This document shows positions 10,543 through 31,228 of a stretch of DNA of 64,000 bases, piece after piece. How positions within the stretch are numbered: the stretch's first letter is position 1; the number at the start of each line of letters is the position of its first letter. The notes below the pieces were generated by a model that saw only the letters and a program-made list of their open reading frames with translations, had not been told where the DNA came from and ran no database searches. The stretch covers positions 32,001 to 96,000 of the IMG/VR virus record IMGVR_UViG_3300028048_000055. One strand, given 5' to 3'. Made by a program: the position numbers and the translations under genes. The stretch is from a virus (taxonomy: Duplodnaviria > Caudoviricetes).

Positions 10543-10605
10543 ATGCAATTAGTAATAACAACAAACATGACACCAGTCAATAATCCAAAGGTAACTTTCG
10601 ATTAG
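10543..10605 (+). CDS. attenuator leader peptide 1 (MQLVITTNMTPVNNPKVTFD)
   Basis: GAGGA SD; T/N/V/P/M-rich; followed by a terminator and Asn/Thr/Met/Pro/Val tRNAs. Confidence 0.8.
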   Translation: MQLVITTNMTPVNNPKVTFD

Positions 10606-10631
10606 TTTGTTTCATTACTCGATTTCATTTG

Positions 10632-10666
10632 AATCCTGTATGAGACAAACTCAAACAGGATTTTTT
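10632..10666 (+). terminator. attenuator terminator 1
   Basis: AATCCTGT/ACAGGATT stem plus T tract; competing pairing 10604-10615 with 10640-10651. Confidence 0.8.
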
Positions 10667-10680
10667 AATTTTCCTTTTAT

Positions 10681-10994
10681 TGTTCCATAGCTCAGTTGGT
10701 AGAGCGACGGACTGTTTGAAATAGACACTTATATTGGAAACGATATATGAAAATCATCGCTAAGTCGGTGAAACCTGTAAAATGGCAACGCCGAGCAAGG
10801 ATTAGAAATAATCTATGTGTAGAGACTTTATACGATGAGCCTAAGTCAGTAATGATATGGCTAAGACAAAGTCCAGACTACAAACGAGTGTCCAATTTGC
10901 GCGGTGGGGGGCTTAACACCCATGCGGATGCTTGGTAACGAAAGTTATAGTAGTATGAATCCGTTGGTCCCTGGTTCGAGTCCAGGTGGAACAG
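10681..10994 (+). tRNA. tRNA-Asn(GTT), interrupted by a group I intron
   Basis: exons 10681-10716 and 10958-10994 rebuild the cloverleaf (ACGGA-CTGTTAA-TCCGT; TGTTCCA/TGGAACA). Confidence 0.9.
10717..10957 (+). mobile_element. group I intron (no ORF) in the tRNA-Asn anticodon loop
   Basis: P/Q/R/S-like core (TCGGTGAAAC, GGCAACGCCGAGCAAG, GTAGAGACT, AAGACAAAGTCC); U before the 5' splice site and terminal G. Confidence 0.85.
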
Positions 10995-11135
10995 CTAACA
11001 CTTAGACAGTAATTGTTCATTGTTACAACGTTATTGTTACGCACGATGAAATTCATGCAAGTTTGGAATCGACAATATTTTGTTAATTCTGGGTAAAGTT
11101 TCAATGAATAGCGGGTGATTATTATCTAAGTAGAT

Positions 11136-11208
11136 GCTGATGTAGCACAGCTGGTAGTGCAGCGGCTTTGTAATCCGCAGGTCGGGGGTTCGGATCCCTC
11201 CATCAGCG
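11136..11208 (+). tRNA. tRNA-Thr(TGT)
   Basis: cloverleaf, loop TTTGTAA. Confidence 0.9.
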
Positions 11209-11398
11209 CTAAAAATATTGTTAGGCGTTATTTAGAAGCTGCAGACTCTTTATAATGCTAAGCCGGGTGCAGCAACGGGATGTCAGCTGCGGGAAGAGCT
11301 GGTATAATCAGAGACCTCCAGTAACAATATAATTTTTACATTAGGTGGTAGTCCACTAGGAAGTTGGATCTCCTTTAAACCAACAAAAGAGAATTTAT

Positions 11399-11482
11399 CG
11401 CGGGATAGTCTAATGGTAAGATATTGGGCTCATAACCCAAGGACTGGTAAAGCTTGTCTCGGTTCGACTCCGAGTCCCGCTA
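11399..11482 (+). tRNA. tRNA-Met(CAT), initiator-like, long variable region
   Basis: unpaired 1:72, GGG/CCC anticodon stem, loop CTCATAA. Confidence 0.8.
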
Positions 11483-11521
11483 TAGTTTAGAGCAGTGGTT
11501 AGCTTATATTATAAATATTAT

Positions 11522-12280
11522 ATGGAATTAAAAATAAAACATATATGTAAATTTTGTAATATGGAGTTTACTACTGGGGCACAATTAGGAACACATATTT
11601 CTAAACAATGTCTTAAAAATCCAAATAGAGGAATACAAAAGAATTCTAAAATTTGGAAATGTTCAATTTGTGGTAATGATTTTCTTTCACGAAGAAGATT
11701 ACAACAGCATCGCAAAGATGAACATATTAACGAAATTAAAAGCAAATACTATGGGTATCATCCGATATTGAATATACCTTGTCAATTTTGCGGTTTAATT
11801 TGTAAAAGAGCTCGTGATTTAACAAGACATGAAAAATTTTGCAAAGAAAACCCAAATAAACAAATTTGGCAAGGACATAAAACTTCGGATGAAACTAAAA
11901 AGAAATTATCAGAAGCGGCTATTAAAAATCTTAGTGGTACACATTGTAATTGGTTAAATAAAAAGAAATCTTATGCTGAAGAATATTTTGAAACTATATT
12001 TACAAATGCTGAATCACAATATCAAGTTGGAAGATACGTATTAGATTTTGCATGGACTAAATCAAAAATTTATATTGAAGTTGATGGTGAACAGCATTAT
12101 ACTAAAGAAGGTATCGAACACGATAAGATTAGGACAGAATTTTTAATAGAAAATGGTTGGAGACTTTTAAAAAGAATTAGATGGTCTGAATTTCAAAAAC
12201 TTTCTAAAGCTGAACGTGAAAATGAAATTTATAGATTATTACAGACTATCAAAATTCAAGAAGAAACTAAAACGTTATGA
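11522..12280 (+). CDS. Zn-finger + NUMOD3-like + DUF559/Vsr-like putative homing endonuclease
   Basis: C2H2/CxxC repeats, HKTSDETKKKLS, LDFAW...IEVDGEQHY; TATAAATA-N4-ATG. Confidence 0.8.
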   Translation: MELKIKHICKFCNMEFTTGAQLGTHISKQCLKNPNRGIQKNSKIWKCSICGNDFLSRRRLQQHRKDEHINEIKSKYYGYHPILNIPCQFCGLICKRARDLTRHEKFCKENPNKQIWQGHKTSDETKKKLSEAAIKNLSGTHCNWLNKKKSYAEEYFETIFTNAESQYQVGRYVLDFAWTKSKIYIEVDGEQHYTKEGIEHDKIRTEFLIENGWRLLKRIRWSEFQKLSKAERENEIYRLLQTIKIQEETKTL

Positions 12281-12318
12281 TCGTAGTCGGTCGGTGGTGG
12301 AACCACCTAAAAAACTTG

Positions 12319-12392
12319 CGGAGTGTAGCTCAGCCTGGTAGAGCATCTGCTTTGGGAGCAGAGGGTCGTGAGTTCGAATCTCGCTACTCCGA
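12319..12392 (+). tRNA. tRNA-Pro(TGG)
   Basis: canonical cloverleaf. Confidence 0.92.
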
Positions 12393-12395
12393 TAA

Positions 12396-12458
12396 AAGAC
12401 ATAGGAAGTTCCTATTAATGAATATTTTTTAGGCAAATAAAATTATACTTCCCGTCTT
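12396..12458 (+). ncRNA. UCCUAU scaffold copy 1 (TAG anticodon-like stem-loop cargo)
   Basis: AAGAC-ATA-GGAAGT-TCCTAT...TAC-TTCC-C-GTCTT. Confidence 0.75.
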
Positions 12459-12460
12459 AA

Positions 12461-12535
12461 CTCTCCTTCGCCTAGCTGGTCATGGCACTTGCCTTACAAG
12501 CAAGCAAAACCTTGGTTCAAATCCAAGAGGGGAGA
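12461..12535 (+). tRNA. tRNA-Val(TAC)
   Basis: cloverleaf, loop CTTACAA. Confidence 0.85.
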
Positions 12536-12541
12536 TAAAAA

Positions 12542-12660
12542 TATAGCATAGGTAGTTCCTATTACTAAGCGTATAGCTCAACTGGTGGAGCAGTTACCGA
12601 AAGGTAAAAGGTTGTCGGTTCGAATCCGATTGTGCTTGCCATTCGATACTACCCGCTATA
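12542..12660 (+). ncRNA. UCCUAU scaffold copy 2 carrying an anticodon-less tRNA mimic (GAAA loop, CCA end)
   Basis: TATAGC-ATA-GGTAGT-TCCTAT...TAC-TACC-C-GCTATA enclosing tRNA-like 12567-12641. Confidence 0.8.
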
Positions 12661-12670: not shown

Positions 12671-12739
12671 GGCATAAGACGTTCCTATTTAGCTCATGTG
12701 AGCGTTTGATTGATATTCAAAAGGTTATTACGTCTCGCC
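12671..12739 (+). ncRNA. UCCUAU scaffold copy 3 (mini D-arm + GAT/Ile anticodon arm)
   Basis: GGC-ATA-AGACGT-TCCTAT...TAC-GTCT-C-GCC; TTTGA-TTGATAT-TCAAA. Confidence 0.8.
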
Positions 12740-12796
12740 AAACTTTTAACAAAAAGAGAACAAACAAAAACATAAATAAACAAAAGAGAAAATAAA

Positions 12797-12862
12797 ATGA
12801 CTTACGTTATGAACACAAATAATACCAACCCTAATAATAACCCTGAGGTTCTACAGGATTAG
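12797..12862 (+). CDS. attenuator leader peptide 2 (MTYVMNTNNTNPNNNPEVLQD)
   Basis: 7 Asn, 3 Thr, 2 Pro; precedes a terminator and Asn/Pro/Thr tRNAs. Confidence 0.85.
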   Translation: MTYVMNTNNTNPNNNPEVLQD

Positions 12863-12894
12863 TTTTGTTTCATAACTTGATGAATTTTTAAACT

Positions 12895-12934
12895 GGATCC
12901 TGTAAGATATTAGAACTTACAGGATTTCTTTTTT
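12895..12934 (+). terminator. attenuator terminator 2
   Basis: ATCCTGTAAG/CTTACAGGAT plus T tract; TACAGGATTAGTTT over the stop codon competes. Confidence 0.85.
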
Positions 12935-12936: not shown

Positions 12937-13021
12937 TCTAGTGTACCCGAGTTGGTAGCAGGGGGAGGACTGTTAATCCTTTGGCGAAAGCCCGTCGCAC
13001 GTCCGAGTCGTGCCACTAGAG
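12937..13021 (+). tRNA. tRNA-Asn(GTT) with long variable arm
   Basis: TCTAGTG/CACTAGA acceptor, loop CTGTTAA, GGC-GAAA-GCC extra arm. Confidence 0.8.
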
Positions 13022-13030
13022 CTAAATTAT

Positions 13031-13114
13031 TGGTAGGTACCCGAGTGGTAGCAGGGGGCGGCCTGTTAAGCCGTTGGCGAAAGCCCGTCGTTGGTTCGAA
13101 TCCAACGTGGACAG
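13031..13114 (+). tRNA. tRNA-Asn(GTT), poorly paired acceptor stem (possible pseudo-tRNA)
   Basis: D, anticodon and T arms intact; TGGTAGG/GTGGACA mismatched. Confidence 0.6.
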
Positions 13115-13123
13115 CTAAAATAT

Positions 13124-13203
13124 TGTCTTGTGGCGGAATTGGTAAACGCACTGCACTGTTAATGCAGCACTTCGGTTTGTAGGTTCGATGCCTACCAAGA
13201 CAG
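13124..13203 (+). tRNA. tRNA-Asn(GTT)
   Basis: TGTCTTG/CAAGACA acceptor, loop CTGTTAA. Confidence 0.8.
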
Positions 13204-13213
13204 TTAGATAAAA

Positions 13214-13286
13214 CAGAATGTAGCTCAGATGGCAGAGCGCACCGTTCGGGGCGGTGAGGCCGGAGGATCGTAACCTCTCATTCTGA
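13214..13286 (+). tRNA. tRNA-Pro(CGG)
   Basis: CACCG-TTCGGGG-CGGTG. Confidence 0.8.
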
Positions 13287-13294
13287 TAAAATAA

Positions 13295-13367
13295 CAGGGT
13301 GTAGGCTAGTTGGTTAGTCGCATGGCCTGGGACCATGTTCACGCAAGTTCGAATCTTGCCACCCTGA
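13295..13367 (+). tRNA. tRNA-Pro(TGG) with C33
   Basis: CATGG-CCTGGGA-CCATG. Confidence 0.75.
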
Positions 13368-13403
13368 TACAACCGAGCACTCTGACTGTATTATAAATAT
13401 AAT

Positions 13404-14039
13404 ATGAATGAATATATATGTAAATTTTGCGGTAAGATTTGTAAAAACATAAATTCTTTAAAAAATCATGAAAGATTATGTAAATTAAATCCTAATAGAC
13501 AAATATCGCCATTTGTAAAATATAATGCAGAGCATGAAACAAGTTGGAATAAAGGGCTTACAAAAGAAAATGATGAAAGAGTTAAGCAAATGGCTGAAAC
13601 TATGAGTCAAAAAATAAGAGCAGGCCTAATACATAACTATGATCATCAAAAAGTATGGACAGAAGAACGTAGAAAAGCACAATCTGAAAGGAAAAAGAAA
13701 TTTTATGAAGAACACCCAGAAAAGCATCCTAATAGCTTAGTAGCTGGTGCACTTAATAAAATGACATATCCTGAAAAATTAGTTACTGAATATTTAAAAG
13801 AACATAATATAACAGCAGAACATAATTGGTATTTTAAAACAGAAAAATTTACAAGATATATAGATTTTTATATAGATGAATTAAAATTATTTATTGAAGT
13901 TGATGGAGAATATTGGCACAAAGATAAACAAAAAGATATTGATAAAGATAATGATGCATTAATGTATGGTTATAAAACATTAAGGTTAAAACCAAAAACA
14001 GTTATAACACAATTAAATGAATTTTTTAATATGGCATAG
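13404..14039 (+). CDS. Zn-finger + DUF559/Vsr-like putative homing endonuclease
   Basis: YICKFCGK...HERLC, WNKGLTKE, IDFY...IEVDGEYWH. Confidence 0.8.
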   Translation: MNEYICKFCGKICKNINSLKNHERLCKLNPNRQISPFVKYNAEHETSWNKGLTKENDERVKQMAETMSQKIRAGLIHNYDHQKVWTEERRKAQSERKKKFYEEHPEKHPNSLVAGALNKMTYPEKLVTEYLKEHNITAEHNWYFKTEKFTRYIDFYIDELKLFIEVDGEYWHKDKQKDIDKDNDALMYGYKTLRLKPKTVITQLNEFFNMA

Positions 14040-14098
14040 GAAGTTCCTATTAGCTCAATGAGCATTTGATTGTTAATCAAAAGGTTTTACTTCCCGCC
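14033..14098 (+). ncRNA. UCCUAU scaffold copy 4 (mini D-arm + GTT/Asn anticodon arm)
   Basis: GGC-ATA-GGAAGT-TCCTAT...TAC-TTCC-C-GCC; TTTGA-TTGTTAA-TCAAA. Confidence 0.8.
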
Positions 14099-14109
14099 TA
14101 AATTTTTTA

Positions 14110-14180
14110 GCTTCTATAATTCAATGGTAAAATGCCGGTTTAGTAGTCCGGATTTCTTGGTTCGAGTCCAGGTGGAAGCG
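14110..14180 (+). tRNA. tRNA-Thr(AGT)
   Basis: GCTTCTA/TGGAAGC acceptor; loop TTAGTAG. Confidence 0.7.
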
Positions 14181-14222: not shown

Positions 14223-14882
14223 ATGGAAGAAAATTATATTTGTAAATTTTGTGGGAAACAATGTAAAAATGCTAATTCTTTACGAAATCACGAAAGATTT
14301 TGTAAAGAAAACCCTGAACACCAAGAATCTCCATGGATAAAATTTAATCATGAACGAGGCGCTTGGAATAAAGGATTAACTAAAGATACGGATGAACGTA
14401 TTAAAAAACGTAGCGAAACATTTTCAAAACGCTATAAAGGCACTGAAGAAGGGAAACGAATTTTTAGTCATCCGCAATCTGAAGAACATAAACAAAAAAT
14501 GCGTAAAATTGCAACAGAAAGACATTGGGGCGGTTGGCATACCTCAAAATCTATTGAATTTAATGGTATAAATTTAGATTCTAGTTATGAAGTTGAAGTA
14601 GCAAATCAACTTAATGAAAATAAAATAAAATGGGAAAGACCTACTTATTTTCTATGGGAAGATACTAATGGAGTAAAACATCGTTATTATCCTGATTTTT
14701 ATCTTCCAGAATATAATGTATATCTTGACCCAAAAAATGATTATTTAATAAATAATAAATCTAAAAAATTTGGTATTACTGATGTTGAAAAAATAATGAA
14801 AGTTGAACAACAAAATGGAATACGTATAATTATTTTAGATAAAGATAATTTAACATGGGAAAACATTAAAGAAAAGATTTAA
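14223..14882 (+). CDS. Zn-finger + PD-(D/E)xK putative homing endonuclease
   Basis: same N-terminal Zn finger as 13404; DSSYE...YYPDFYL...DPK. Confidence 0.75.
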   Translation: MEENYICKFCGKQCKNANSLRNHERFCKENPEHQESPWIKFNHERGAWNKGLTKDTDERIKKRSETFSKRYKGTEEGKRIFSHPQSEEHKQKMRKIATERHWGGWHTSKSIEFNGINLDSSYEVEVANQLNENKIKWERPTYFLWEDTNGVKHRYYPDFYLPEYNVYLDPKNDYLINNKSKKFGITDVEKIMKVEQQNGIRIIILDKDNLTWENIKEKI

Positions 14883-14914: not shown

Positions 14915-14981
14915 TATCAATGAGAAAGGGTTGACATTTGTCGACCTTTTTTCTATATTAAAAGAAAAAGGAAATATAATA

Positions 14982-16608: not shown

Positions 16609-16612
16609 AATT

Positions 16613-16734
16613 CGACGAGTAGCTCAATTGGTAGAGCACATGTTTTTTATACCAACCGCTACTTGGCAAACTTGGTTCCTATTAATTATGGAATAGGTCC
16701 ATGGGGGTTGTAGGTTCGAGTCCTACCTTCCCGG
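16613..16734 (+). ncRNA. tRNA-like RNA with a circularly permuted UCCUAU scaffold (copy 6) in place of the anticodon loop
   Basis: D arm and T arm flank TACCAAC-C-GCTA-CT-TGGC-AAA-CTTGGT-TCCTAT. Confidence 0.65.
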
Positions 16735-16748
16735 TTATAAAAAATTTA

Positions 16749-16910
16749 TCGCTGAATGCTCTATCGTCTAGTGGTTTAGGACAGCCGGGGGTTAAACCGG
16801 TGAACAGTGGGTTCGAATCCCCTTAGAGGTAACTAAATATTGATTGCAGTCAATATATTCTTCAGCGAGAGGTATACTGATTGACGCCTGCAAACGTTGT
16901 GATGTATACC
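16749..16910 (+). ncRNA. tRNA-like module enclosed in a longer structured RNA
   Basis: TCGCTGAA/TTCAGCGA stem encloses a tRNA-like fold with an 8-nt loop; extra hairpins. Confidence 0.5.
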
Positions 16911-16941: not shown

Positions 16942-16970
16942 TTGACAAACCAAAAACTTTTTACTATATT
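16942..16970 (+). promoter_or_regulatory. promoter of tRNA block 3
   Basis: TTGACA-N17-TATATT. Confidence 0.75.
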
Positions 16971-17032: not shown

Positions 17033-17140
17033 ATGAACAAGAACTTTAACATTGAATTCATCGCGATTGCAGCAGAACGTATTGCAGAATTTGCAGAACG
17101 TGTTTTTGCGATTGACAATTCAGTGCACAGGTTCAAGTAA
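17033..17140 (+). CDS. attenuator leader peptide 3 (MNKNFNIEFIAIAAERIAEFAERVFAIDNSVHRFK)
   Basis: 6 Ala, 5 Ile, 5 Phe, 4 Glu; precedes Glu/Ala/Phe/Val/Ile tRNAs. Confidence 0.85.
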   Translation: MNKNFNIEFIAIAAERIAEFAERVFAIDNSVHRFK

Positions 17141-17170
17141 ACGAAATTACTTAAGGTATGAAGAATTTAC

Positions 17171-17205
17171 GGTTCCTGTGTATAACACAGGGACCTTAAT
17201 TTTTT
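17171..17205 (+). terminator. attenuator terminator 3
   Basis: GGTTCCTGTG/CACAGGGACC plus T-rich tract; GTGCACAGG (17123-17131) competes. Confidence 0.85.
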
Positions 17206-17215
17206 ATATAACTTT

Positions 17216-17289
17216 GGGACTTTAGAATACGTTAGCTAGTTCACCGCCCTTTCACGGCGGAGAATCGGGGGCAGCACCCGGAAGTCCTA
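17216..17289 (+). tRNA. tRNA-Glu(TTC)
   Basis: loop CTTTCAC; atypical T loop (GGCAGCA). Confidence 0.75.
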
Positions 17290-17297
17290 CTAATTTT

Positions 17298-17368
17298 GGG
17301 CTTATGATGTAATGGTAGCATAATAGCTTTGCAAGCTATTTGTTAGGTTTCGAATACCTATAGGTCCA
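17298..17368 (+). tRNA. tRNA-Ala(TGC)
   Basis: G3:U70, loop TTTGCAA. Confidence 0.8.
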
Positions 17369-17377
17369 CTATATTAT

Positions 17378-17451
17378 GCCGCTCAATCCGAATCCAGTGA
17401 TCGGACGGGACTGAAAATCCCAGAAGCTCAGGGCAGCACTGAGGGGCGGCA
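17378..17451 (+). tRNA. tRNA-Phe(GAA)
   Basis: loop CTGAAAA; atypical D and T loops. Confidence 0.7.
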
Positions 17452-17463
17452 CGAAAACATTAT

Positions 17464-17537
17464 GGGCCAGTAGCCTAGTAGGAAAGGCACCGCACCTGCA
17501 ATGCGGAGTTCATGGGTTCGATCCCCATCTGTGTCCA
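17464..17537 (+). tRNA. tRNA-Ala(TGC) with C33
   Basis: G3:U70; CCGCA-CCTGCAA-TGCGG. Confidence 0.8.
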
Positions 17538-17547
17538 CTAAATTTTT

Positions 17548-17620
17548 GGGCTCGCATGTACCCTGGAGGCGAGCTGGCCTTGCAAGCCGGCTGAGATGGG
17601 TTCGACACCCACCGGGTCCA
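17548..17620 (+). tRNA. tRNA-Ala(TGC)
   Basis: G3:U70; loop CTTGCAA; degenerate D arm. Confidence 0.75.
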
Positions 17621-17677
17621 TGAAAATAAATTTACATTAAGGAGTTAAAATGGGAACTGATATGTAAAAATAAATAT

Positions 17678-17750
17678 GGGCTTATGGTGTAATTGGTAAC
17701 ATGTCGGCTTTGCAAGCCGAAGAGTCCGGAATCGTCCTCCGGTAGGTCCA
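17678..17750 (+). tRNA. tRNA-Ala(TGC)
   Basis: G3:U70; loop TTTGCAA. Confidence 0.78.
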
Positions 17751-17755
17751 CTAAT

Positions 17756-17830
17756 GGGGGCAAAGGTTACTTTTCGCAACTTTTGCACAAAGAGTTCCTA
17801 ACTATATTGGTTCAATTCCAATAGCCTCCA
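17756..17830 (+). ncRNA. Ala-acceptor tRNA-like RNA resembling a tmRNA tRNA-like domain
   Basis: GGGGGC/GCCTCC-A with G3:U70 and a T arm; no D stem or canonical anticodon arm. Confidence 0.5.
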
Positions 17831-17840
17831 CTAAATTTAT

Positions 17841-17915
17841 GGGGCTGTAGCTCAGTTTTGGTGGAGCGGAAGACTGAAGATCTTCGCGTCGCAGGTTCGA
17901 TTCCTGCCGGGGGCA
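17841..17915 (+). tRNA. tRNA-Phe(GAA), mismatched acceptor stem
   Basis: GAAGA-CTGAAGA-TCTTC; GGGGCTG/CGGGGGC poorly paired. Confidence 0.6.
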
Positions 17916-17922
17916 CTAATAT

Positions 17923-17997
17923 GGTTCTATCGTCTACGGAAGGCTAGGATGTAACCCTCTCAAGGTTATGAATTTGGTTCGACCCCAAATGGAACTA
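17923..17997 (+). tRNA. tRNA-Glu(CTC)
   Basis: TAACC-CTCTCAA-GGTTA. Confidence 0.82.
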
Positions 17998-18007
17998 TTA
18001 AAAATAT

Positions 18008-18081
18008 GGGACTTTAGAATATGCTGGTTAGTTCGCTGCCCTTTCAAGGCGGAAAGTCCGGATCATCGCCGGAAAGTCCTA
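18008..18081 (+). tRNA. tRNA-Glu(TTC)
   Basis: paralog of 17216; loop CTTTCAA. Confidence 0.75.
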
Positions 18082-18090
18082 CTAAAATAT

Positions 18091-18164
18091 ATCCGATTAA
18101 CTCAGTGGTTCAGAGTGACGCTTTGACTAAGCGTAAGTCATAGGTTCGAATCCTTTATTGGGTA
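18091..18164 (+). tRNA. tRNA-Val(GAC)
   Basis: ACGCT-TTGACTA-AGCGT. Confidence 0.75.
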
Positions 18165-18168
18165 CTAT

Positions 18169-18245
18169 CCATAGGCATAACGATTGGTTTTCCGTTTGCC
18201 ACTCTGATAAGGTGGAGACTGTAGGTTCAAATCCTACCCTATGGA
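18169..18245 (+). tRNA. tRNA-Ile(GAT)
   Basis: CCATAGG/CCTATGG acceptor; loop CTGATAA. Confidence 0.72.
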
Positions 18246-18254
18246 CTAAAATAT

Positions 18255-18331
18255 CGGCAACTATCTCCTCGCTCTGATAAGGCGTTGAAAGAGTAATTGG
18301 TTACATGTAGGTTCAATTCCTATGTTGCCGA
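18255..18331 (+). tRNA. rearranged tRNA-Ile(GAT)-like RNA lacking a D arm at the normal position
   Basis: CGGCAAC/GTTGCCG acceptor, CTGATAA loop, T arm; a D-like hairpin follows the anticodon arm. Confidence 0.55.
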
Positions 18332-18352
18332 CTAAATTAAATTTTAATATTT

Positions 18353-18388
18353 AAAAGGATTGACATTAGTCAATCCTTTTTCTATATT
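18353..18388 (+). terminator. fused terminator and promoter
   Basis: AAAAGGATTGAC/GTCAATCCTTTT hairpin contains TTGACA; TATATT 17 nt later. Confidence 0.7.
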
Positions 18389-19901: not shown

Positions 19902-19930
19902 TTTACAAGAGTTAAATAATTTACTATATT
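19902..19930 (+). promoter_or_regulatory. promoter of tRNA block 4
   Basis: TTTACA-N17-TATATT. Confidence 0.75.
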
Positions 19931-19951: not shown

Positions 19952-20071
19952 AATAGCAAAAGCGGTTCCTATAACCAGAGGAATAGCTTAGTTGGTTAGA
20001 GCAACGCAGCAATGCGGAGGCCGTCGGTTCGAGTCCGATTTCCCCTACCATCAAGTTTACTGCTCGCTATT
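19952..20071 (+). ncRNA. UCCUAU scaffold copy 7 carrying an anticodon-less tRNA mimic (GCAA loop, ACCA end)
   Basis: AATAGC-AAA-AGCGGT-TCCTAT...TAC-TGCT-C-GCTATT enclosing tRNA-like 19977-20050. Confidence 0.8.
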
Positions 20072-20358: not shown

Positions 20359-20365
20359 CTAATAA

Positions 20366-21641: not shown

Positions 21642-21650
21642 CTAAAATTT

Positions 21651-21722: not shown

Positions 21723-21737
21723 TTAAAAAATTTCATC

Positions 21738-21808: not shown

Positions 21809-21812
21809 TAAT

Positions 21813-21884
21813 GCGGTTATGGTGTAACTGGCAACATAATAGTCTTCCAAACTGTAGTTTCGGGATCGTACCCCGATAGCCGCT
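21813..21884 (+). tRNA. tRNA-Gly(TCC)
   Basis: GCGGTTA/TAGCCGC-U73; loop CTTCCAA. Confidence 0.82.
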
Positions 21885-21887
21885 CTA

Positions 21888-22607: not shown

Positions 22608-22638
22608 CGAAAGTCAACCTTTTTTCTATATTTAAATT

Positions 22639-22953: not shown

Positions 22954-23017
22954 TAGGATAAAGGTTGACGAAAGTCAATCTTTTTTCTATATTATAATAT
23001 GGAATAAAGGATTAATA

Positions 23018-25285: not shown

Positions 25286-25314
25286 TTTACAAACAGAAAA
25301 TAATTTACTATATT
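25286..25314 (+). promoter_or_regulatory. promoter of tRNA block 5
   Basis: TTTACA-N17-TATATT. Confidence 0.75.
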
Positions 25315-25376: not shown

Positions 25377-25463
25377 ATGAAGACTCTTAGTTTAACACTT
25401 GTCCTACTCAGTAGCCTGCTCCTCAGCTGGTTATTGCGTCGTAATATAGTGGGAACTAAGTAG
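25377..25463 (+). CDS. attenuator leader peptide 5 (MKTLSLTLVLLSSLLLSWLLRRNIVGTK)
   Basis: 10 Leu using all six codons, 4 Ser (all AGY), 1 Trp; precedes Trp/Leu/Ser(GCT) tRNAs. Confidence 0.85.
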   Translation: MKTLSLTLVLLSSLLLSWLLRRNIVGTK

Positions 25464-25491: not shown

Positions 25492-25524
25492 AAGGTTCCC
25501 ATAAGTTGGGGACCTTAATTTTTT
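25492..25524 (+). terminator. attenuator terminator 5
   Basis: AAGGTTCCCA/TGGGGACCTT plus T tract; GTGGGAACT (25449-25457) competes. Confidence 0.85.
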
Positions 25525-25528
25525 ATAT

Positions 25529-25600
25529 AGCTCTATGAGGTAACGGTAGCCTACGAGACTCCAAATCTGCGAAATCCCTGTTCGAATCGGGGTAGGGCTG
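25529..25600 (+). tRNA. tRNA-Trp(CCA)
   Basis: loop CTCCAAA; G73. Confidence 0.78.
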
Positions 25601-25604
25601 TAAA

Positions 25605-25694
25605 CGGTCTGTGATTGGAATTGGTATACAGCATCGGCTTAAACCCGGTGGCCGAGATAAATACGGATTGGGGGTTCGAGTCCCTTCAGGCCGA
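25605..25694 (+). tRNA. tRNA-Leu(TAA)
   Basis: loop CTTAAAC; long variable arm. Confidence 0.82.
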
Positions 25695-25704
25695 TAAAAT
25701 ATAA

Positions 25705-25786
25705 CGGTATGTGATGGAATGTATACATGCGGGCTTGAGAGGTCCGTGCCCAAAAGGGATTGGGAGTGCGAATCTCCCCGTACCGA
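25705..25786 (+). tRNA. tRNA-Leu(GAG)
   Basis: loop TTGAGAG; long variable arm. Confidence 0.8.
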
Positions 25787-25794
25787 TAACATAA

Positions 25795-25878
25795 CGTCAG
25801 GTGGAGTAATTGGTAGCCTCGCAAGAACGAGAGTCTTGTGGTAGAAATACCGTGAGGGTTCGAGTCCCTCTCTGACGA
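25795..25878 (+). tRNA. tRNA-Leu(GAG) with A32/C33
   Basis: CAAGA-ACGAGAG-TCTTG. Confidence 0.75.
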
Positions 25879-25887
25879 TAAATTAAT

Positions 25888-25972
25888 GGAAGCGTAGGCT
25901 AATAGGTAAGCCAGCACTTTGCTAAAGTGCCGTGGAGAAATCTGCTTGAAGGTTCGAGCCCTTCCGCTTCCG
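25888..25972 (+). tRNA. tRNA-Ser(GCT)
   Basis: GCACT-TTGCTAA-AGTGC; G73; long variable arm. Confidence 0.87.
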
Positions 25973-25980
25973 CTACATAT

Positions 25981-26092
25981 TGCTTGGTGGTGAAAATCGT
26001 GTGGCCTAGGCGCATCGTAGGTAAACACGCCCCGCATAGTAGGGGTGTCTACTTAGCTGGTAGACTTGTTGGTTCGAGTCCAACCTAAGCAG
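25981..26092 (+). tRNA. atypical tRNA (Leu-like) with D-loop insertion and 8-nt anticodon loop
   Basis: acceptor, T arm and variable arm present; GCCCC-GCATAGTA-GGGGT. Confidence 0.55.
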
Positions 26093-26100
26093 TTAAATAT

Positions 26101-26174
26101 CCACTGGTGATGGAACTGGCATACATATCGGATTCAAAACCCGAGTTTTGAGGGTTCGACTCCCTCCTGGTGGA
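26101..26174 (+). tRNA. tRNA-Leu(CAA) with short variable loop
   Basis: loop TTCAAAA. Confidence 0.75.
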
Positions 26175-26180
26175 CTAAAT

Positions 26181-26265
26181 GGCCGAGTGATGGAACTGGC
26201 GAGACAACGGTGCCTTAGAAGCATCGGTCCGAAAGGGCGTGTGGGTTCGAATCCCACCTTGGCCA
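26181..26265 (+). tRNA. tRNA-Leu(TAG)
   Basis: GGTGC-CTTAGAA-GCATC; long variable arm. Confidence 0.87.
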
Positions 26266-26267
26266 CT

Positions 26268-28262: not shown

Positions 28263-28291
28263 TTTACAAACAGAAAATAAATTACTATATT
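28263..28291 (+). promoter_or_regulatory. promoter of tRNA block 6
   Basis: TTTACA-N17-TATATT; near-identical to 25286. Confidence 0.75.
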
Positions 28292-28357: not shown

Positions 28358-28447
28358 ATGAACTATCAGTTATATACATCATGCACTTCTTCATGCAGAC
28401 AGCAGTCTTCATGTTATTGCATGTATTCCATTAAAACTGATGGGTGA
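28358..28447 (+). CDS. attenuator leader peptide 6 (MNYQLYTSCTSSCRQQSSCYCMYSIKTDG)
   Basis: 6 Ser (all TCN), 4 Tyr, 4 Cys, 3 Gln (all CAG); precedes Tyr/Cys/Met/Ser/Gln tRNAs. Confidence 0.85.
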   Translation: MNYQLYTSCTSSCRQQSSCYCMYSIKTDG

Positions 28448-28477
28448 CATCATTAAAGTTTGTATATAAACTTTTAT

Positions 28478-28508
28478 GGCGTCACGAAAAGTGACGCTTT
28501 TATTTTTT
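28478..28508 (+). terminator. attenuator terminator 6
   Basis: GGCGTCAC/GTGACGCT plus T tract; GTGACATCAT over the stop codon competes. Confidence 0.85.
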
Positions 28509-28516: not shown

Positions 28517-28601
28517 GGCAGTTTCGGATAGCGGCAATTCCTGGAGGCTGTAACCCTCCCGCCTTAACGGGCTTCCGTAGGTTCGAGTCCTACAGCTGTC
28601 A
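28517..28601 (+). tRNA. tRNA-Tyr(GTA)
   Basis: GGAGG-CTGTAAC-CCTCC. Confidence 0.85.
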
Positions 28602-28621
28602 CTAAAAATTTATGAATTTAT

Positions 28622-28708
28622 GCTAGTTTGGCAGAGTGGCGAATGCGCGTGACTGTAGATCACGTCTCTAACGAGTTAACATCAGGGGTTCGACTCCCTT
28701 AGCTAGCA
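28622..28708 (+). tRNA. tRNA-Tyr(GTA)
   Basis: CGTGA-CTGTAGA-TCACG. Confidence 0.85.
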
Positions 28709-28725
28709 CTAAAATATAGGTAAAA

Positions 28726-29262
28726 ATGTCAATAAGTTTAATTGAAAAATATGGAGAAGATTATATACGTAATGTTTTTAAAACTGCCAAAACAGTTGAT
28801 GAAGCATGTGAAAAATTACAAACAATAACAAAATATTTAAATTATTATGCAAAAGAATTAAATTGTATTGATGATTATAATAGAATAAAAATTAATTCTA
28901 GTCAAATTGTTAAAGAACGTTTAAAAGATTATCCAGATGCATACATAATGAAAAATGTTAATGGTGTAGTTACACGTACTATAAATGATGATGCATGGCT
29001 TAAATTAATTTTTGAAAATAAAATTAGTAGTAAAAAACAAACAATATTACGTATTCTTATTAAAGCAGGATATAAAGAAAATAAATGTGAATGTTGCGGT
29101 ATTAATGAATGGAATAAAAAACCAATAACTTTACAATTACATCACAAAAATGGAAATCCACGTGATAATTGTTTAGAAAATTTAGAAATATTATGTCCAA
29201 ATTGTCATTCACAAACTAATAATTATGGAAGTAAAAATGCGGCATTACATATAAAAGATTAA
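28726..29262 (+). CDS. HNH endonuclease
   Basis: CECCG...LQLHHKNGNPRDN...LCPNCHSQT. Confidence 0.85.
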   Translation: MSISLIEKYGEDYIRNVFKTAKTVDEACEKLQTITKYLNYYAKELNCIDDYNRIKINSSQIVKERLKDYPDAYIMKNVNGVVTRTINDDAWLKLIFENKISSKKQTILRILIKAGYKENKCECCGINEWNKKPITLQLHHKNGNPRDNCLENLEILCPNCHSQTNNYGSKNAALHIKD

Positions 29263-29529
29263 AACACAAACGAGTAGAACCCGTGTTGCATCATTCTTGA
29301 TTTCATGCTAACGGGCTAACCCAGATGGGGAAAACTCTGGGACGAGGAATCTGCTCTTGCGAATTAGATGAATAACAGAATGATGGTCGCAAGAGTGTAG
29401 TATTGGCTCTACTAAAATATGCCACGTGAGGCCACTTGAAATAAGAGTGAGCGGAGAGAAATTCTGGATTAACCACCTGCTGTGCTCCTTAATCAGTCCT
29501 TGCAATTAGGACGCCTGTAAGTTTGTGTT
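29263..29529 (+). ncRNA. unidentified ~265-nt structured RNA
   Basis: AACACAAAC/GTTTGTGTT closing stem, several helices and a crossing pairing. Confidence 0.6.
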
Positions 29530-29535
29530 AATTGT

Positions 29536-29608
29536 GCTGATATAGCCAAGTCTGGTAAGGCTGATGGTTGCAACCCATCGATCGGGAGTTCGAATCTCTC
29601 TATCAGCT
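29536..29608 (+). tRNA. tRNA-Cys(GCA)
   Basis: GATGG-TTGCAAC-CCATC; U73. Confidence 0.87.
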
Positions 29609-29613
29609 CTACA

Positions 29614-29708
29614 TGTAGCATAGGATGTTCCTATTAATGGAAGATAGGCCATCAGGCCTTGATTCGGTTCAAATCCGAAAGCCGAAAGGCAAATTACATC
29701 CCGCTATA
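29614..29708 (+). ncRNA. UCCUAU scaffold copy 9 (T-arm mimic plus two hairpins)
   Basis: TGTAGC-ATA-GGATGT-TCCTAT...TAC-ATCC-C-GCTATA; TTCGG-TTCAAAT-CCGAA. Confidence 0.8.
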
Positions 29709-29719
29709 AGAAATTAAAA

Positions 29720-29792
29720 AATGGCATAAGAAGTTCCTATTTCGCCCGTTAGGGCATCCGACTTGAAATCAGACTAATTACTTCTCGCTATT
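29720..29792 (+). ncRNA. UCCUAU scaffold copy 10 (mini D-arm + TGA/Ser anticodon arm)
   Basis: TGGC-ATA-AGAAGT-TCCTAT...TAC-TTCT-C-GCTA; TCCGA-CTTGAAA-TCAGA. Confidence 0.8.
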
Positions 29793-29796
29793 TAAC

Positions 29797-29868
29797 GGCA
29801 GTATAACACAATGGTTAGTGTAGCGGAATCATAATCCGTTAATATTGGTTCGAATCCAGTTATTGCTA
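29797..29868 (+). tRNA. tRNA-Met(CAT) (elongator, or Ile2)
   Basis: GCGGA-ATCATAA-TCCGT. Confidence 0.8.
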
Positions 29869-29884
29869 TAATAAAAAATTAATT

Positions 29885-30718
29885 ATGAAGTTAAAATACA
29901 TATGTCAATATTGTAATAAAGAATTAACTAGGCCATGTGCATTAGCTATACATCAACGTGTTTGTAAATTAAATCCAAATAGACAACCGTTAATAAATAA
30001 TGGTAATTTAAATATAGCTAAATATCATAAACCTAAGGCTCCATATGGAACATGGAAATGTAAGTGGTGTAATAATGACATTATTTTTGATACTAGAAAA
30101 CAATTAAAAGAACATTTAAAAGAAAAACATCCAGAAAAACGTAATGCATGGAATAAAGGCTTAACAAAAGAAACTGATGAACGTGTTAAACAATTTGGTC
30201 AAACATATTCTAAGCGAATAAAAAATAAAGAAATATCTGCACTTTTTGCAGGCAAAAAACATACAGATGAATGGCGAAAAAATCATTCAGAATTACAAAA
30301 AGAAAGATATAAAGGAATATCGATATATGCAACCGTAAGGGAAAAACGAAAATCTTATCCTGAACAATATTTTGATAAAATATTTAGTGATGCAGAAAAA
30401 CAATATCATGTAGATAGTTATTTTTTAGATTATGCATGGCCATATATTAAATTATATATTGAAGTTGATGGTGAACAACATTATACTGAATCTGGTTTAC
30501 TTCATGATAAAGAAAGAGCAGAAATATTAAGTAAATTAGGTTGGAATTGTATTACGCGTATTAGATGGAAAAATTATATAAAATTAACAACTAATGAAAA
30601 AGAAAATTTTATAAATAATTTATTAAATAAAATTAATATTTTTAAAAATGAAACTATAGGAAGCAAAACAGACTGCCGGCTCCTATATACGGTGTACAAC
30701 GTCGAAGATAAGGTCTAG
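29885..30718 (+). CDS. Zn-finger + DUF559/Vsr-like putative homing endonuclease
   Basis: paralog of 11522: KSYPEQYF...LDYAW...IEVDGEQHY. Confidence 0.8.
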   Translation: MKLKYICQYCNKELTRPCALAIHQRVCKLNPNRQPLINNGNLNIAKYHKPKAPYGTWKCKWCNNDIIFDTRKQLKEHLKEKHPEKRNAWNKGLTKETDERVKQFGQTYSKRIKNKEISALFAGKKHTDEWRKNHSELQKERYKGISIYATVREKRKSYPEQYFDKIFSDAEKQYHVDSYFLDYAWPYIKLYIEVDGEQHYTESGLLHDKERAEILSKLGWNCITRIRWKNYIKLTTNEKENFINNLLNKINIFKNETIGSKTDCRLLYTVYNVEDKV

Positions 30719-30784
30719 GGTTTGTAAGTTTCAGTATTGGAGAAACTTATACGGCAAGGTTCACCGGGAACAATGAACCATTTT

Positions 30785-30870
30785 TGAGGATTAACCCTAA
30801 TTGGTAAGGGCACGGTTTGGAATACCGTCGTGGGTTTACTCACTTGAAAGTTCGAGTCTTTCATCCTCAG
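30785..30870 (+). tRNA. tRNA-Ser(GGA)
   Basis: ACGGT-TTGGAAT-ACCGT. Confidence 0.82.
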
Positions 30871-30972
30871 CTACGTATGGTGTTAGCGTTAAAACGGCAT
30901 AGGTATACATATGCACGGCACTGCACAGATGAACTATGCGTATTACTGTGCAAAATAAAAAATACGCTGTCT

Positions 30973-31056
30973 GGAAGAGCATCAGATTGGCGACTCAAGC
31001 TGTCCTGAAAACAGTAGTTCCGCAAGGGCTTGTGGGTTCAAATCCCTCCTCTTCCT
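30973..31056 (+). tRNA. tRNA-Ser(TGA) with C33
   Basis: GCTGT-CCTGAAA-ACAGT. Confidence 0.75.
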
Positions 31057-31061
31057 CTAAT

Positions 31062-31142
31062 GGAAGATTAGACTAACTGGTAAGTCAGCAATTTCGAACG
31101 TTGCCGCCGAAAGGCTTGGGTGTTCGAGTCACTCATCTTCCG
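31062..31142 (+). tRNA. tRNA-Ser(CGA)
   Basis: GCAAT-TTCGAAC-GTTGC. Confidence 0.82.
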
Positions 31143-31152
31143 TTATATTTTC

Positions 31153-31228
31153 TGTCCGTTAGCCAAGTCTGTTCTAAGGCAGGGGTCTCTGAAGCCTCCA
31201 TTCGGTGGTTAAAATCCATCACGGACAA
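31153..31228 (+). tRNA. tRNA-Gln(CTG)
   Basis: U1-A72; GGGGT-CTCTGAA-GCCTC. Confidence 0.82.

Follow-up and report, generated by a model that had tools for sequence, protein, structure and literature searches.

The window analysed here comprises 64,000 nucleotides (positions 32,001 to 96,000) of the viral record IMGVR_UViG_3300028048_000055. It belongs to a giant uncultured phage with six tRNA gene blocks, each of which lies behind a short ORF and an apparently switchable transcription stop. This arrangement raises the question of whether the short ORFs control the tRNA genes. An earlier note, made from the sequence alone, had read them as leader peptides of trp/ilv-type attenuators. Our analysis favours the same answer: the tRNA set is probably made only when ribosomes read the leader codons slowly.

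Layout of the six units

All six leader ORFs were found at their claimed starts (Table 1) and the claimed layout is the same in each unit: an ORF of 20-35 codons is followed by an intrinsic terminator (hairpin and T-run) and then by the tRNA block. The T-run is separated from the first tRNA by 3-20 nt; the earlier note had placed this tRNA within about 15 nt of the terminator. The combined blocks encode tRNAs for all 20 amino acids, as had been stated. Several of the tRNAs on which the claimed match depends were overlooked by the default run of ARAGORN, namely Asn(GTT) (10681-10995, with a 241-nt insert), Glu at 17215-17292, two Phe, two Ile and Ser(TGA). We recovered them by eye, with Rfam and with our own cloverleaf scan.

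The claim that the leaders gate the tRNA genes holds for the six blocks but not for every tRNA gene. The tRNA or tRNA-like genes at 16612-16831 have no leader in front, and a further one (19977-20050) sits between the promoter-like site and leader 4, so it is outside the leader gating. In the relative G002 a Leu/Thr/Asn/Pro/Met tRNA block lies ungated behind a plain promoter. Block 4 runs directly into an ATP-grasp gene. Several units are adjoined by tRNA-like elements and repeated scaffold RNAs; the tRNA-like RNA in block 1 has an anticodon stem capped by GAAA.

Table 1. Positions in the window of leaders, predicted control elements and tRNA blocks, by unit.
Feature	Position	Strand	Details
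Sigma-70-like promoter, leader 1	10452-10480	+	TTTACA-17-TATATT; consensus match only
Motif TTTATATATAATATAAA	10514-10530	+	12 nt 5' of leader 1 ATG; contains TATAAT
Leader 1 MQLVITTNMTPVNNPKVTFD	10543-10605	+	20 aa; Thr, Asn, Val, Pro, Met codons
Antiterminator 5' strand 1	10604-10618	+	+1 to +15 from stop; partner 10638-10651
Terminator hairpin 1	10631-10663	+	T-run after
Block 1	10681-12641	+	Asn(GTT, 241-nt insert), Thr(TGT), Met(CAT), homing endonuclease gene, Pro(TGG), Val(TAC), tRNA-like RNA
Leader 2 MTYVMNTNNTNPNNNPEVLQD	12797-12862	+	21 aa; Asn, Thr, Pro codons
Antiterminator 5' strand 2	12843-12863	+	-17 to +3; partner 12892-12913
Terminator hairpin 2	12895-12927	+	T-run after
Block 2	12937-14180	+	Asn(GTT) x3, Pro(CGG), Pro(TGG), endonuclease gene, Thr(AGT)
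Promoter-like site, leader 3	16942-16970	+	TTGACA-17-TATATT
Motif TTTATATATAATATAAA	17006-17022	+	upstream of leader 3
Leader 3 MNKNFNIEFIAIAAERIAEFAERVFAIDNSVHRFK	17033-17140	+	35 aa; Ala, Ile, Phe, Glu, Val codons
Antiterminator 5' strand 3	17123-17139	+	-15 to +1; partner 17168-17183
Terminator hairpin 3	17171-17195	+	T-run after
Block 3	17215-18335	+	Glu(TTC), Ala(TGC) x4, Phe(GAA) x2, Glu(CTC), Glu(TTC), Val(GAC), Ile(GAT) x2
Block-3-end terminator	18353-18380	+	stem carries TTGACA box of next promoter
Promoter-like site, unit 4	19902-19930	+	
Motif TTTATATATAATATAAA	20095-20111	+	upstream of leader 4
Leader 4 MTKFVVDMHDVDTRRDGRGFGKHDKDRYRHRVI	20122-20223	+	33 aa; Asp, Arg-CGN, Gly, His, Lys-AAG codons
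Antiterminator 5' strand 4	20208-20226	+	-13 to +5; partner 20245-20263
Terminator hairpin 4	20248-20281	+	T-run after
Block 4	20288-21885	+	Asp(GTC) x2, HNH endonuclease gene, Arg(ACG), Gly(GCC), Lys(CTT), His(GTG), Gly(TCC)
ATP-grasp ORF	21888-22607		begins 3 nt past block 4
Terminator, block 4 / ATP-grasp region	22598-22623		
Promoter-like site, unit 5	25286-25314	+	
Motif TTTATATATAATATAAA	25350-25366	+	upstream of leader 5
Leader 5 MKTLSLTLVLLSSLLLSWLLRRNIVGTK	25377-25463	+	28 aa; all six Leu codons, Ser-AGY, Trp
Antiterminator 5' strand 5	25449-25457	+	-12 to -4; partner 25494-25502
Terminator hairpin 5	25492-25516	+	T-run after
Block 5	25528-26266	+	Trp(CCA), Leu(TAA), Leu(GAG) x2, Ser(GCT), atypical element, Leu(CAA), Leu(TAG)
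Atypical element in block 5	25980-26093		
Promoter-like site, unit 6	28263-28291	+	
Leader 6 MNYQLYTSCTSSCRQQSSCYCMYSIKTDG	28358-28447	+	29 aa; Ser-TCN, Tyr, Cys, Gln-CAG, Met codons
Antiterminator 5' strand 6	28444-28453	+	-1 to +8; partner 28476-28485
Terminator hairpin 6	28478-28498	+	T-run after
Block 6	28517-31228	+	Tyr(GTA) x2, HNH gene, Cys(GCA), Met(CAT), endonuclease gene, Ser(GGA), Ser(TGA), Ser(CGA), Gln(CTG)
Block-6-end terminator	31247-31270		

For leader 2 we found no promoter-like site of its own; this unit sits in series behind block 1. Across the whole 165 kb record the motif TTTATATATAATATAAA occurs in exact form just four times, each directly 5' of a leader, and is possibly a second promoter or a translation element. 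Shine-Dalgarno-like motifs are weak, with AAGG 9-14 nt upstream of the leaders and merely AGAGAA for leader 2. Among the variants compared, the position of the leader stop is conserved while its codon changes between TGA, TAG and TAA, and indels inside the ORFs are multiples of three. We take both features as signs that the leaders are translated.

Codon match between leaders and tRNA blocks

The residues of each leader had been said to fit the tRNAs downstream, and the codon counts bear this out. Between 50% and 64% of the codons of a leader are read by its own block (0.50-0.64 on the diagonal), compared to 0-19% for unrelated blocks. When the leaders were compared against shuffled block pairings, the true pairing ranked best of all 720. 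Per leader, binomial P values ranged from 5e-5 to 2e-9 with the codon usage of the phage genes as background, and only 0-4 of about 12,000 gene windows equalled the match of a leader.

The match extends to synonymous codons, and every codon-level claim of the earlier note was reproduced. In leader 5, which precedes Ser(GCT), all four Ser codons are AGY, and in leader 6, which precedes Ser(GGA/TGA/CGA), all six are TCN. Lys is AAG in 3/3 cases in leader 4 before Lys(CTT) and Gln is CAG in 3/3 cases in leader 6 before Gln(CTG). Given phage gene codon usage, the joint probability that these choices fit the anticodons is about 3e-6. The leaders also make heavy use of codons that are rare in phage genes, such as CTC and CGC, each of which accounts for 3% of its family there. 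The match is not complete. Under strict wobble rules there is no cognate leader codon for Glu(CTC), Ser(CGA) or the block 2 tRNAs Pro(CGG) and Pro(TGG), and non-cognate codons occur, e.g. CGT in leaders 3 and 5.

Leader codons in related phages

We compared related phages of ∼415-424 kb, including a complete genome of 424 kb with seven units (G001). For G001 the true pairing was the best of 5040 and for G002 and G003 it was the best of 720 in each. Where tRNA genes differ in their block, the leader codons shift with them. In the window and in G001, block 6 contains Cys(GCA) and Gln(CTG); leader 6 there has 3-4 Cys codons and three CAG, and leader 5 has none. In G002, G003 and G005 the two genes are in block 5; here leader 5 has two Cys codons and two CAG and leader 6 has none. 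In a third lineage (L012) block 5 holds Cys without Gln, and leader 5 has two Cys codons and no Gln. Ile(GAT) behaves similarly: the window and G002 carry it in block 3, with 4-6 ATY codons in leader 3, whereas in G001, L035 and L041 it is in block 6, with 3-4 ATT in leader 6 and none in the central run of leader 3. The relatives also carry a seventh class of leader, with AGA, CAA, AAA and ATA before Arg(TCT), Gln(TTG), Lys(TTT) and Ile(TAT); in contrast, the Arg and Lys codons of leader 4 are CGN and AAG, and the Gln codon of leader 6 is CAG. The match is thus conserved in the relatives, a check that had been proposed along with the original claim. That leader codons track the moves of tRNA genes between blocks is hard to explain unless ribosomes read the leader as a tRNA sensor.

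Pairing between the leader stop and the terminator

A segment at or just before the stop codon that can pair into the terminator had been claimed for each unit. We found such pairing in all six and in every variant: in the nascent RNA a stop-proximal stretch, which in the six units of the window lies between -17 and +15 nt of the stop, pairs with the 5' arm of the terminator, with z-scores of -3.0 to -5.1. The own terminator arm was the best partner of the leader in 8/11 cases, and none of 20,000 random leader-arm pairings reached the observed total. For class 4, 94.8% of the cells of the helix are paired across 11 variants, including one AU/GC/GU pair. As the relatives are close, the helices show little covariation: class 4 has a single compensatory pair, and the class 5 lineages have a few. 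In class 5 of L012 a gap of about 14 nt separates the end of the antiterminator strand from the stop, which puts it at the edge of the footprint of a terminating ribosome.

The leaders were also folded with the stop-proximal segment free or masked. For the full-length RNA at equilibrium the terminator was preferred in 5/6 units even with the segment free. A working switch would therefore have to act kinetically, like that of trp. In five of the six leaders the first codons are able to pair with the last codons.

Proposed mechanism and alternative explanations

The short ORF, its cognate codons, the intrinsic terminator and the competing antiterminator at the stop support the trp/ilv-type reading of the earlier note, and we consider it likely that the units are transcription attenuators of the ribosome-mediated (leader-peptide) type, each set before its own tRNA operon. 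Transcription would begin at the sigma-70-like promoter, and perhaps also at a second AT-rich promoter 10-14 nt 5' of the ATG, and a ribosome would translate the leader while RNA polymerase proceeds downstream. If every codon family of the leader is decoded fast, the ribosome at the stop would cover the segment from about -17 to +15 nt, so that the terminator can fold and the polymerase stops short of the tRNAs. A ribosome stalled anywhere in the central run, whose codons are those read by the tRNAs encoded downstream, would leave this segment free to pair with the terminator 5' arm once it is made; no terminator would then form and the tRNA block would be transcribed. An untranslated leader is predicted to terminate as well, as in trp, through the pairing of first and last codons. 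A block would thus be switched on by a shortage of charged tRNA for any one of its codon families and off once the supply returns. If this is true, the net effect is a closed-loop, block-by-block control of decoding capacity. Amino-acid starvation would not be eased by extra tRNA, so the purpose is more coherently seen as feedback on decoding capacity or as making good tRNAs that have been lost. The physiological trigger may be supply feedback or a tRNA-cleaving defence.

Several other explanations have to be weighed against attenuation. The leaders could be translated and sense decoding speed while the output is processing or decay of the precursor (access of RNase E, P or Z) or Rho-dependent termination, the hairpin being a constitutive leaky terminator or a stabiliser. 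The equilibrium folds, which favour the terminator whether or not the segment is free, agree with this, and with tRNA-like and scaffold RNAs beside several units RNA processing is certainly active here. The stop-proximal segment nevertheless fits the terminator arm of its own unit across many different arm sequences and changes together with it between lineages. Such three-way complementarity is required by a terminator/antiterminator switch and useless to a processing model, which makes the latter improbable. More doubtful still is a reversed or feed-forward logic, by which efficient leader translation favours readthrough and abundant tRNA leads to more tRNA synthesis. Some translation would indeed be needed for readthrough if an untranslated leader terminates, but in 6/6 units the antiterminator 5' strand is placed where a ribosome completing the leader masks it, and the cognate codons stop just where a stalled ribosome would start covering that strand.

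The weak ribosome-binding sites could mean that the ORFs are untranslated and that their triplets contact tRNA directly in the manner of a T-box or are tRNA-related leftovers. We regard this as very unlikely: the cognate triplets share one frame between ATG and stop, the stop keeps its position though its codon varies, indels come in threes, and an Rfam search (E<=0.01) reported tRNAs alone, with no T-box and no leader family. Moreover, a T-box reads one specifier codon, whereas the leaders offer 10-20. Short ORFs are common in AT-rich DNA, so ordinary small genes, noise or base composition have to be considered too; given the permutation, binomial and codon-level tests, the co-variation with tRNA content in relatives and the negative controls in other phages, chance has a negligible probability.

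Comparison with known systems

Our literature search found no description of leader-peptide attenuation controlling tRNA genes, and the claim that such control of phage tRNA arrays is undescribed therefore stands. Six cultured tRNA-rich phages were surveyed; one of them, Agrobacterium phage Atu_ph07, has a candidate unit (gp469), and no comparable leader ORF was found in the other five, which serve as negative controls.

Multivalent attenuators are known from enterobacterial amino-acid operons, such as the ilvGMEDA leader (Leu/Val/Ile) and thrL (Thr/Ile), alongside trpL, hisL, leuL and pheL. The phage units share with them the short leader rich in control codons, the mutually exclusive antiterminator and terminator hairpins, the probable sensing of several amino acids by one leader, and the predicted responses: termination with the ribosome at the stop or with an untranslated leader, readthrough with a stalled ribosome. 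They differ in that they would regulate tRNAs and not biosynthetic enzymes, that the match goes down to codon and anticodon with up to nine tRNA species per leader, that six or seven phage-encoded units jointly cover all 20 amino acids, and that their leaders have no sequence similarity to the known ones (no Rfam leader family). The pheST attenuator (pheM leader) controls the phenylalanyl-tRNA synthetase of E. coli. Here too, part of the decoding machinery responds to charged tRNA by way of a leader peptide, but the system belongs to the host, has a synthetase as target and senses a single amino acid. Attenuation of the trpL type is described in PMC6614838.

T-box riboswitches also let tRNA status choose between terminator and antiterminator before translation-related genes. 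They bind uncharged tRNA directly, by one specifier codon and the T-box motif and without a ribosome, whereas the phage control codons would be read in frame. In mycobacteria, cysteine-responsive polycysteine leaderless short ORFs attenuate downstream genes (bioRxiv 10.1101/834739). They resemble the phage leaders as short ORFs rich in one codon family, but respond to one amino acid and control protein-coding operons, by a reported mechanism other than a terminator switch before tRNAs.

A T5 tRNA counters PARIS, a tRNA-targeting immunity (PMC11464382), and anticodon-loop variants of phage tRNAs counter tRNA-targeting immunity as well (PMC10264068). Neither paper gives an account of how phage tRNA genes are regulated, and the words 'attenuat', 'leader' and 'terminator' do not occur in the text of PMC10264068. 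Like the tRNAs of these two studies, those of the six blocks would be phage-encoded copies replacing host tRNAs lost in infection, and such immunity supplies a plausible reason for a phage to sense a shortage of tRNA.

Units and tRNA inventory

The earlier note had described six units in the window, each made up of a short leader ORF, an intrinsic terminator and a tRNA block, and this observation was confirmed. All six ORFs are present, start with ATG and have 20-35 codons. Each leader is followed by a hairpin containing G+C and a T-run (6/6 units, z −3.7 to −7.6), and the first tRNA, which had been placed close behind the terminator, starts 3-20 nt past the T-run. AAGG or GAGGA occurs 5-14 nt upstream of the leader ATGs, weakly so for leader 2. 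Promoter-like sites were found upstream of five of the six leaders; these are consensus matches only, and the region overall is not enriched for them over shuffles. Leader 2 is without such a site and stands in series behind block 1. The positions of all features are collected in the table.

The ARAGORN default run gave 38 tRNAs in the window. It missed an Asn(GTT) right behind terminator 1, which is split by a 241-nt insert, a Glu(TTC) right behind terminator 3, and also two Phe(GAA), two Ile(GAT), one Asn and a Ser(TGA). These were recovered via Rfam matches, reading by eye and a simple cloverleaf scan; the scan and the inspection by eye replaced an ARAGORN run with relaxed threshold, which was too noisy. 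In the completed inventory the tRNAs of the six blocks cover all 20 amino acids, as had been claimed. The insert in the split tRNA-Asn sits directly after the anticodon and gave no Rfam group I intron match at E≤0.01.

Not every tRNA is gated. One stretch of the window holds tRNA or tRNA-like genes without a gating leader, and a tRNA-like gene between promoter and leader 4 is likewise ungated. In G002, a complete related uncultured phage, a Leu/Thr/Asn/Pro/Met tRNA block lies behind a plain TTGACA-17-TATATT promoter without a leader (L058 8950-9520). Attenuation is therefore not universal within these genomes.

Positions of features in the window (leaders numbered along the window, all on the plus strand)
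Feature	Positions
Leader 1	10543-10605
Leader 2	12797-12862
Leader 3	17033-17140
Leader 4	20122-20223
Leader 5	25377-25463
Leader 6	28358-28447
T-runs of terminators 1-6	~10668, ~12934, ~17205, ~20284, ~25524, ~28510
Split tRNA-Asn(GTT)	10681-10995
tRNA or tRNA-like genes without gating leader	16612-16831
tRNA-like genes with abnormal anticodon loop	12567-12641, 16757-16831, 19977-20050
RNA with CATAGGAAGTTCCTATT-type motif, anticodon stem-loop GAT	12672-12742
RNA with CATAGGAAGTTCCTATT-type motif, anticodon stem-loop GTT	14037-14107
Other RNAs with CATAGGAAGTTCCTATT-type motif	12399-12415, 12548-12565, 16675-16700, 20372-20388, 29613-29700, 29725-29790
Homing-endonuclease-like genes between tRNAs	11495-12280, 13404-14039, 14223-14882, 20567-21331, 28726-29262, 29885-30718
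Block-end terminators of the form aGGGTTGACAnnnGTCAACCTTTTTTCTATATT	14927-14948, 18353-18380, 22598-22623, 22960-22983
R2K-clade ATP-grasp gene	21888-22607
PTH2 peptidyl-tRNA hydrolase gene	23409-23852

Codon match between leaders and blocks

For every leader and every block we computed the share of leader codons (start codon left out) that the block anticodons can read under conservative wobble. Leader codons had been said to match the tRNAs behind them, and this was borne out: the score was 0.50-0.64 on the diagonal, compared to 0-0.19 for unrelated leader-block pairs. Cross-matches were seen only for leaders 1 and 2, the blocks of which have Asn, Thr and Pro in common. When the pairings were permuted, the true one was the best of all 720. 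Against the codon usage of 47 long ORFs of the window, the binomial P values for the six leaders were 5e-5, 2e-4, 2e-6, 6e-7, 2e-8 and 2e-9, and only 0-4 of ~12,000 gene windows of equal length reached the observed count.

The match extends to synonymous codons. The examples in the earlier note, in which synonymous choices agree with the anticodons, are real and have a joint probability of ~3e-6. The leaders also use codons that are avoided by phage genes, namely CTC (3% of Leu) and CGC (3% of Arg). By our count they cover 30 of the window's 34 distinct combinations of block and anticodon. Cognate codons make up a central run, with the first 2-5 and last 5-9 codons mostly non-cognate, and these runs stop 1-4 codons ahead of the antiterminator 5' strand, the stop-proximal leader segment that pairs with the terminator 5' arm.

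Covariation in related phages

The 165 kb IMG/VR virus from which the window was taken (its bases 32001-96000) is ~40% complete by CheckV estimate, and all of its tRNAs fall within the window, which has a G+C content of ~30%. Its terminase fragment is T4-like with ~30% identity to cultured phages. The GenBank phage set contained no close relative (megablast gave no match and blastn matched tRNAs only). IMG/VR holds uncultured relatives that measure 415-424 kb and have terminal repeats. We pulled homologous units from IMG/VR with the motif TTTATATATAATATAAA and a degenerate leader 4 pattern. The tRNA regions that we compared came from two complete genomes (G001, G002) and from three fragments. 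In the 165 kb record the motif has four exact copies, which lie on the upstream side of leaders only.

The relatives are the strongest evidence for the proposed link between leaders and tRNAs. The check for conservation that the earlier note had called for gave the true pairing as the best in each of three relatives (1/5040 for G001, 1/720 for G002 and 1/720 for the homologous DNA G003). Across the window and its relatives, leader codons track tRNA genes that were relocated between blocks. Block 6 contains Cys(GCA) and Gln(CTG) in the window and G001, and there leader 6 has 3-4 Cys codons and three CAG, with none in leader 5. In G002, G003 and G005 these two tRNAs are in block 5 instead, and two Cys codons and two CAG are present in leader 5, with none left in leader 6. 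A third lineage (L012, L025, L032, L052) has Cys without Gln in block 5, and its leader 5 contains two Cys codons and no Gln codon. Ile(GAT) behaves alike: where it is part of block 3 (window, G002) leader 3 carries 4-6 ATY codons, and where it is part of block 6 (G001, L035, L041) leader 6 carries 3-4 ATT, with none in the central run of leader 3.

The complete relatives have a seventh unit, in which the leader uses AGA, CAA, AAA and ATA and the tRNAs are Arg(TCT), Gln(TTG), Lys(TTT) and Ile(TAT). These codon choices are complementary to those of leaders 4 and 6. DNA of this seventh class had no match in the 165 kb record, which CheckV puts at ~40% completeness. Among the phages the stop codon of leader 4 is TGA, TAG or TAA at an unchanged position, and indels within the leader ORFs are multiples of three. 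Both features point to translation with the standard code.

Terminator and predicted antiterminator

The leader segment close to the stop codon had been noted as able to pair into the terminator. We folded the nascent RNA up to the terminator 3' arm, with the arm itself left out, and in 6/6 units the folds joined the terminator 5' arm to the stop-proximal segment by a long-range helix. These folds were more stable than dinucleotide shuffles (z −3.0 to −5.1). The antiterminator 5' strand lies between −17 and +15 nt relative to the first base of the stop codon in all six units. From its position, this strand is predicted to be under a ribosome at the stop codon and clear of a ribosome stalled at the control codons.

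The nascent-RNA folds showed the antiterminator helix in every variant examined, including classes (homologues of one unit) with quite different terminator sequences. In 8 of 11 cases the stop-proximal segment had the arm of its own terminator as best partner, and the total observed over all pairings was matched by 0 of 20,000 random ones. For the 11 variants of class 4 the helix was 94.8% paired, compared to 33-52% when it was slid. One compensatory pair of this class changes from AU to GC through GU and has its 3' partner in the terminator loop, a change that is explained by the predicted antiterminator only. Between lineages of class 5 the terminator 5' arm shows a C-to-U change, and the leader segment as well as the 3' arm change from G to A to match it.

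The two structures have comparable energies (antiterminator −15 to −22, terminator −13 to −19 kcal/mol). An equilibrium fold of the full leader with a masked ribosome made no switch visible, and the terminator won in 5/6 units. As the complete RNA prefers the terminator at equilibrium, the choice would have to be kinetic and be made during transcription. The choice in trp attenuation is likewise kinetic and made during transcription. In 5/6 free-RNA folds the start of the leader pairs with its end (z −2.0 to −3.6; absent in leader 2), so an untranslated leader may also terminate.

Neighbouring genes and other RNAs

PHROGs and Pfam searches with the neighbouring ORFs gave context only. The R2K-clade ATP-grasp gene begins 3 nt downstream of the final tRNA in block 4 and may share the attenuator of this block. 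Together with the gene for PTH2 it fits a translation-centred region. The homing-endonuclease-like genes encode a C2H2 zinc finger with a DUF559/Vsr-like domain, or HNH. Most have TATAAATA(T/A)AAT directly upstream, a few bases ahead of the ATG. This sequence looks like a late promoter of the T4 type with next to no 5' UTR.

The near-palindromic motif CATAGGAAGTTCCTATT and its variants are repeated and close small structured RNAs scattered among the tRNAs, some of which have a tRNA-like anticodon stem-loop without a T arm. Three tRNA-like genes have abnormal anticodon loops. In one of them a GAAA tetraloop replaces the loop, and the CCA end is encoded. Another, which is kept between promoter and leader 4 in relatives, has a loop of 6 nt, and in the remaining one the loop measures 8 nt. 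Such genes might act as decoys or processing signals, or be frameshift-type tRNAs. The stem of the block-end terminators holds a TTGACA box 17 nt before TATATT, so that a single aGGGTTGACAnnnGTCAACCTTTTTTCTATATT element may serve as terminator and next promoter in one.

Search in cultured phages

A blind finder scored short ORFs ≤200 nt upstream of the first tRNA in a run against local codon usage. It recovered the leaders of the window at P values of 1e-4 to 2e-8, except leader 3, which reached only 2e-3 because the finder uses ARAGORN default tRNA calls. Nothing significant was found in Stenotrophomonas phage RAS14, Vibrio phage KVP40, T5, Mycobacterium phage Bxz1 and Cronobacter phage GAP32. 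The top candidate of KVP40 turned out to be a duplicated promoter region that lacks a terminator, and was discarded.

For the Agrobacterium phage Atu_ph07 the finder picked the annotated hypothetical gene FDI40_gp469 (NC_042013.1 complement(339118..339246), our L081:7619-7747:-). Each of the nine tRNAs behind this 42-codon ORF (Ala, Arg, Phe, Pro, Ile, Tyr, Trp, Met, Glu) has one or more of its codons in it, and 18 of 21 consecutive codons are cognate, which was reached by 0 of 3842 gene windows. The ORF is followed by an intrinsic terminator with a 5' arm perfectly complementary to leader codons 32-35. The gene looks like a codon-matched leader with antiterminator and terminator and is a lead, not an established case. 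With a candidate unit in a cultured phage, the question becomes testable in a real infection.

Proposed mechanism and comparison with known systems

Judged by sequence statistics, structure and comparison, the units are probably codon-sensing attenuators of tRNA operons, and we predict that readthrough is regulated in response to charged cognate tRNA. In their layout they correspond to classical leader-peptide attenuators. A ribosome completing the leader would mask the antiterminator strand and transcription would stop; a ribosome stalled in the central run would leave the strand free and the tRNA block would be transcribed. As each leader samples nearly every anticodon of its own block, shortage of any one species should open the whole block. 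Since the product is tRNA, the loop would close on decoding capacity and not on amino-acid supply. Candidate uses are an economical supply feedback, or the replacement of tRNAs lost to host nucleases or phage-induced decay.

More tentatively, and with less than even confidence, the six units (seven in the complete relatives) could form a full codon-resolved sensor of decoding capacity. A giant phage could then rebuild the tRNA pool block by block when tRNAs vanish, either through host tRNA-cleaving immunity or through the phage's own destruction of host tRNAs, and the design would be a general, unpublished rule for giant-phage tRNA arrays including that of Atu_ph07.

To our knowledge, how phages control their own tRNAs is almost unknown. 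If the attenuation reading is true, these would be the first tRNA genes known to be regulated by how well their own products decode. The array would act as a natural sensor with several inputs, one module for each tRNA set, and would tie phage tRNA arrays to current research on tRNA-targeting immunity. At ~150-250 nt the units are small and portable, directly testable by reporters and potential codon-specific biosensors. The reason for phage tRNAs has been debated for ~50 years (PMC10264068); that paper, which deals with the function of phage tRNAs, says nothing of such regulation. Full-text literature searches turned up no account of tRNA genes under attenuation control, whether in phages or in cells.

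We compared the units with known systems. A T-box, with its stem I specifier loop and its conserved sequence in the antiterminator bulge, was not matched: at E≤0.01 the Rfam hits within 9500-32500 were to tRNA and tRNA-Sec only. The Rfam enterobacterial leader families (His, Thr, Trp, Leu and Phe leaders) gave no match at E≤0.01. The resemblance to the trp, ilv and thr attenuators is hence one of design and not of descent. Leader-peptide attenuation is a known kind of control, and its probable use on tRNA genes would be a new form of it.
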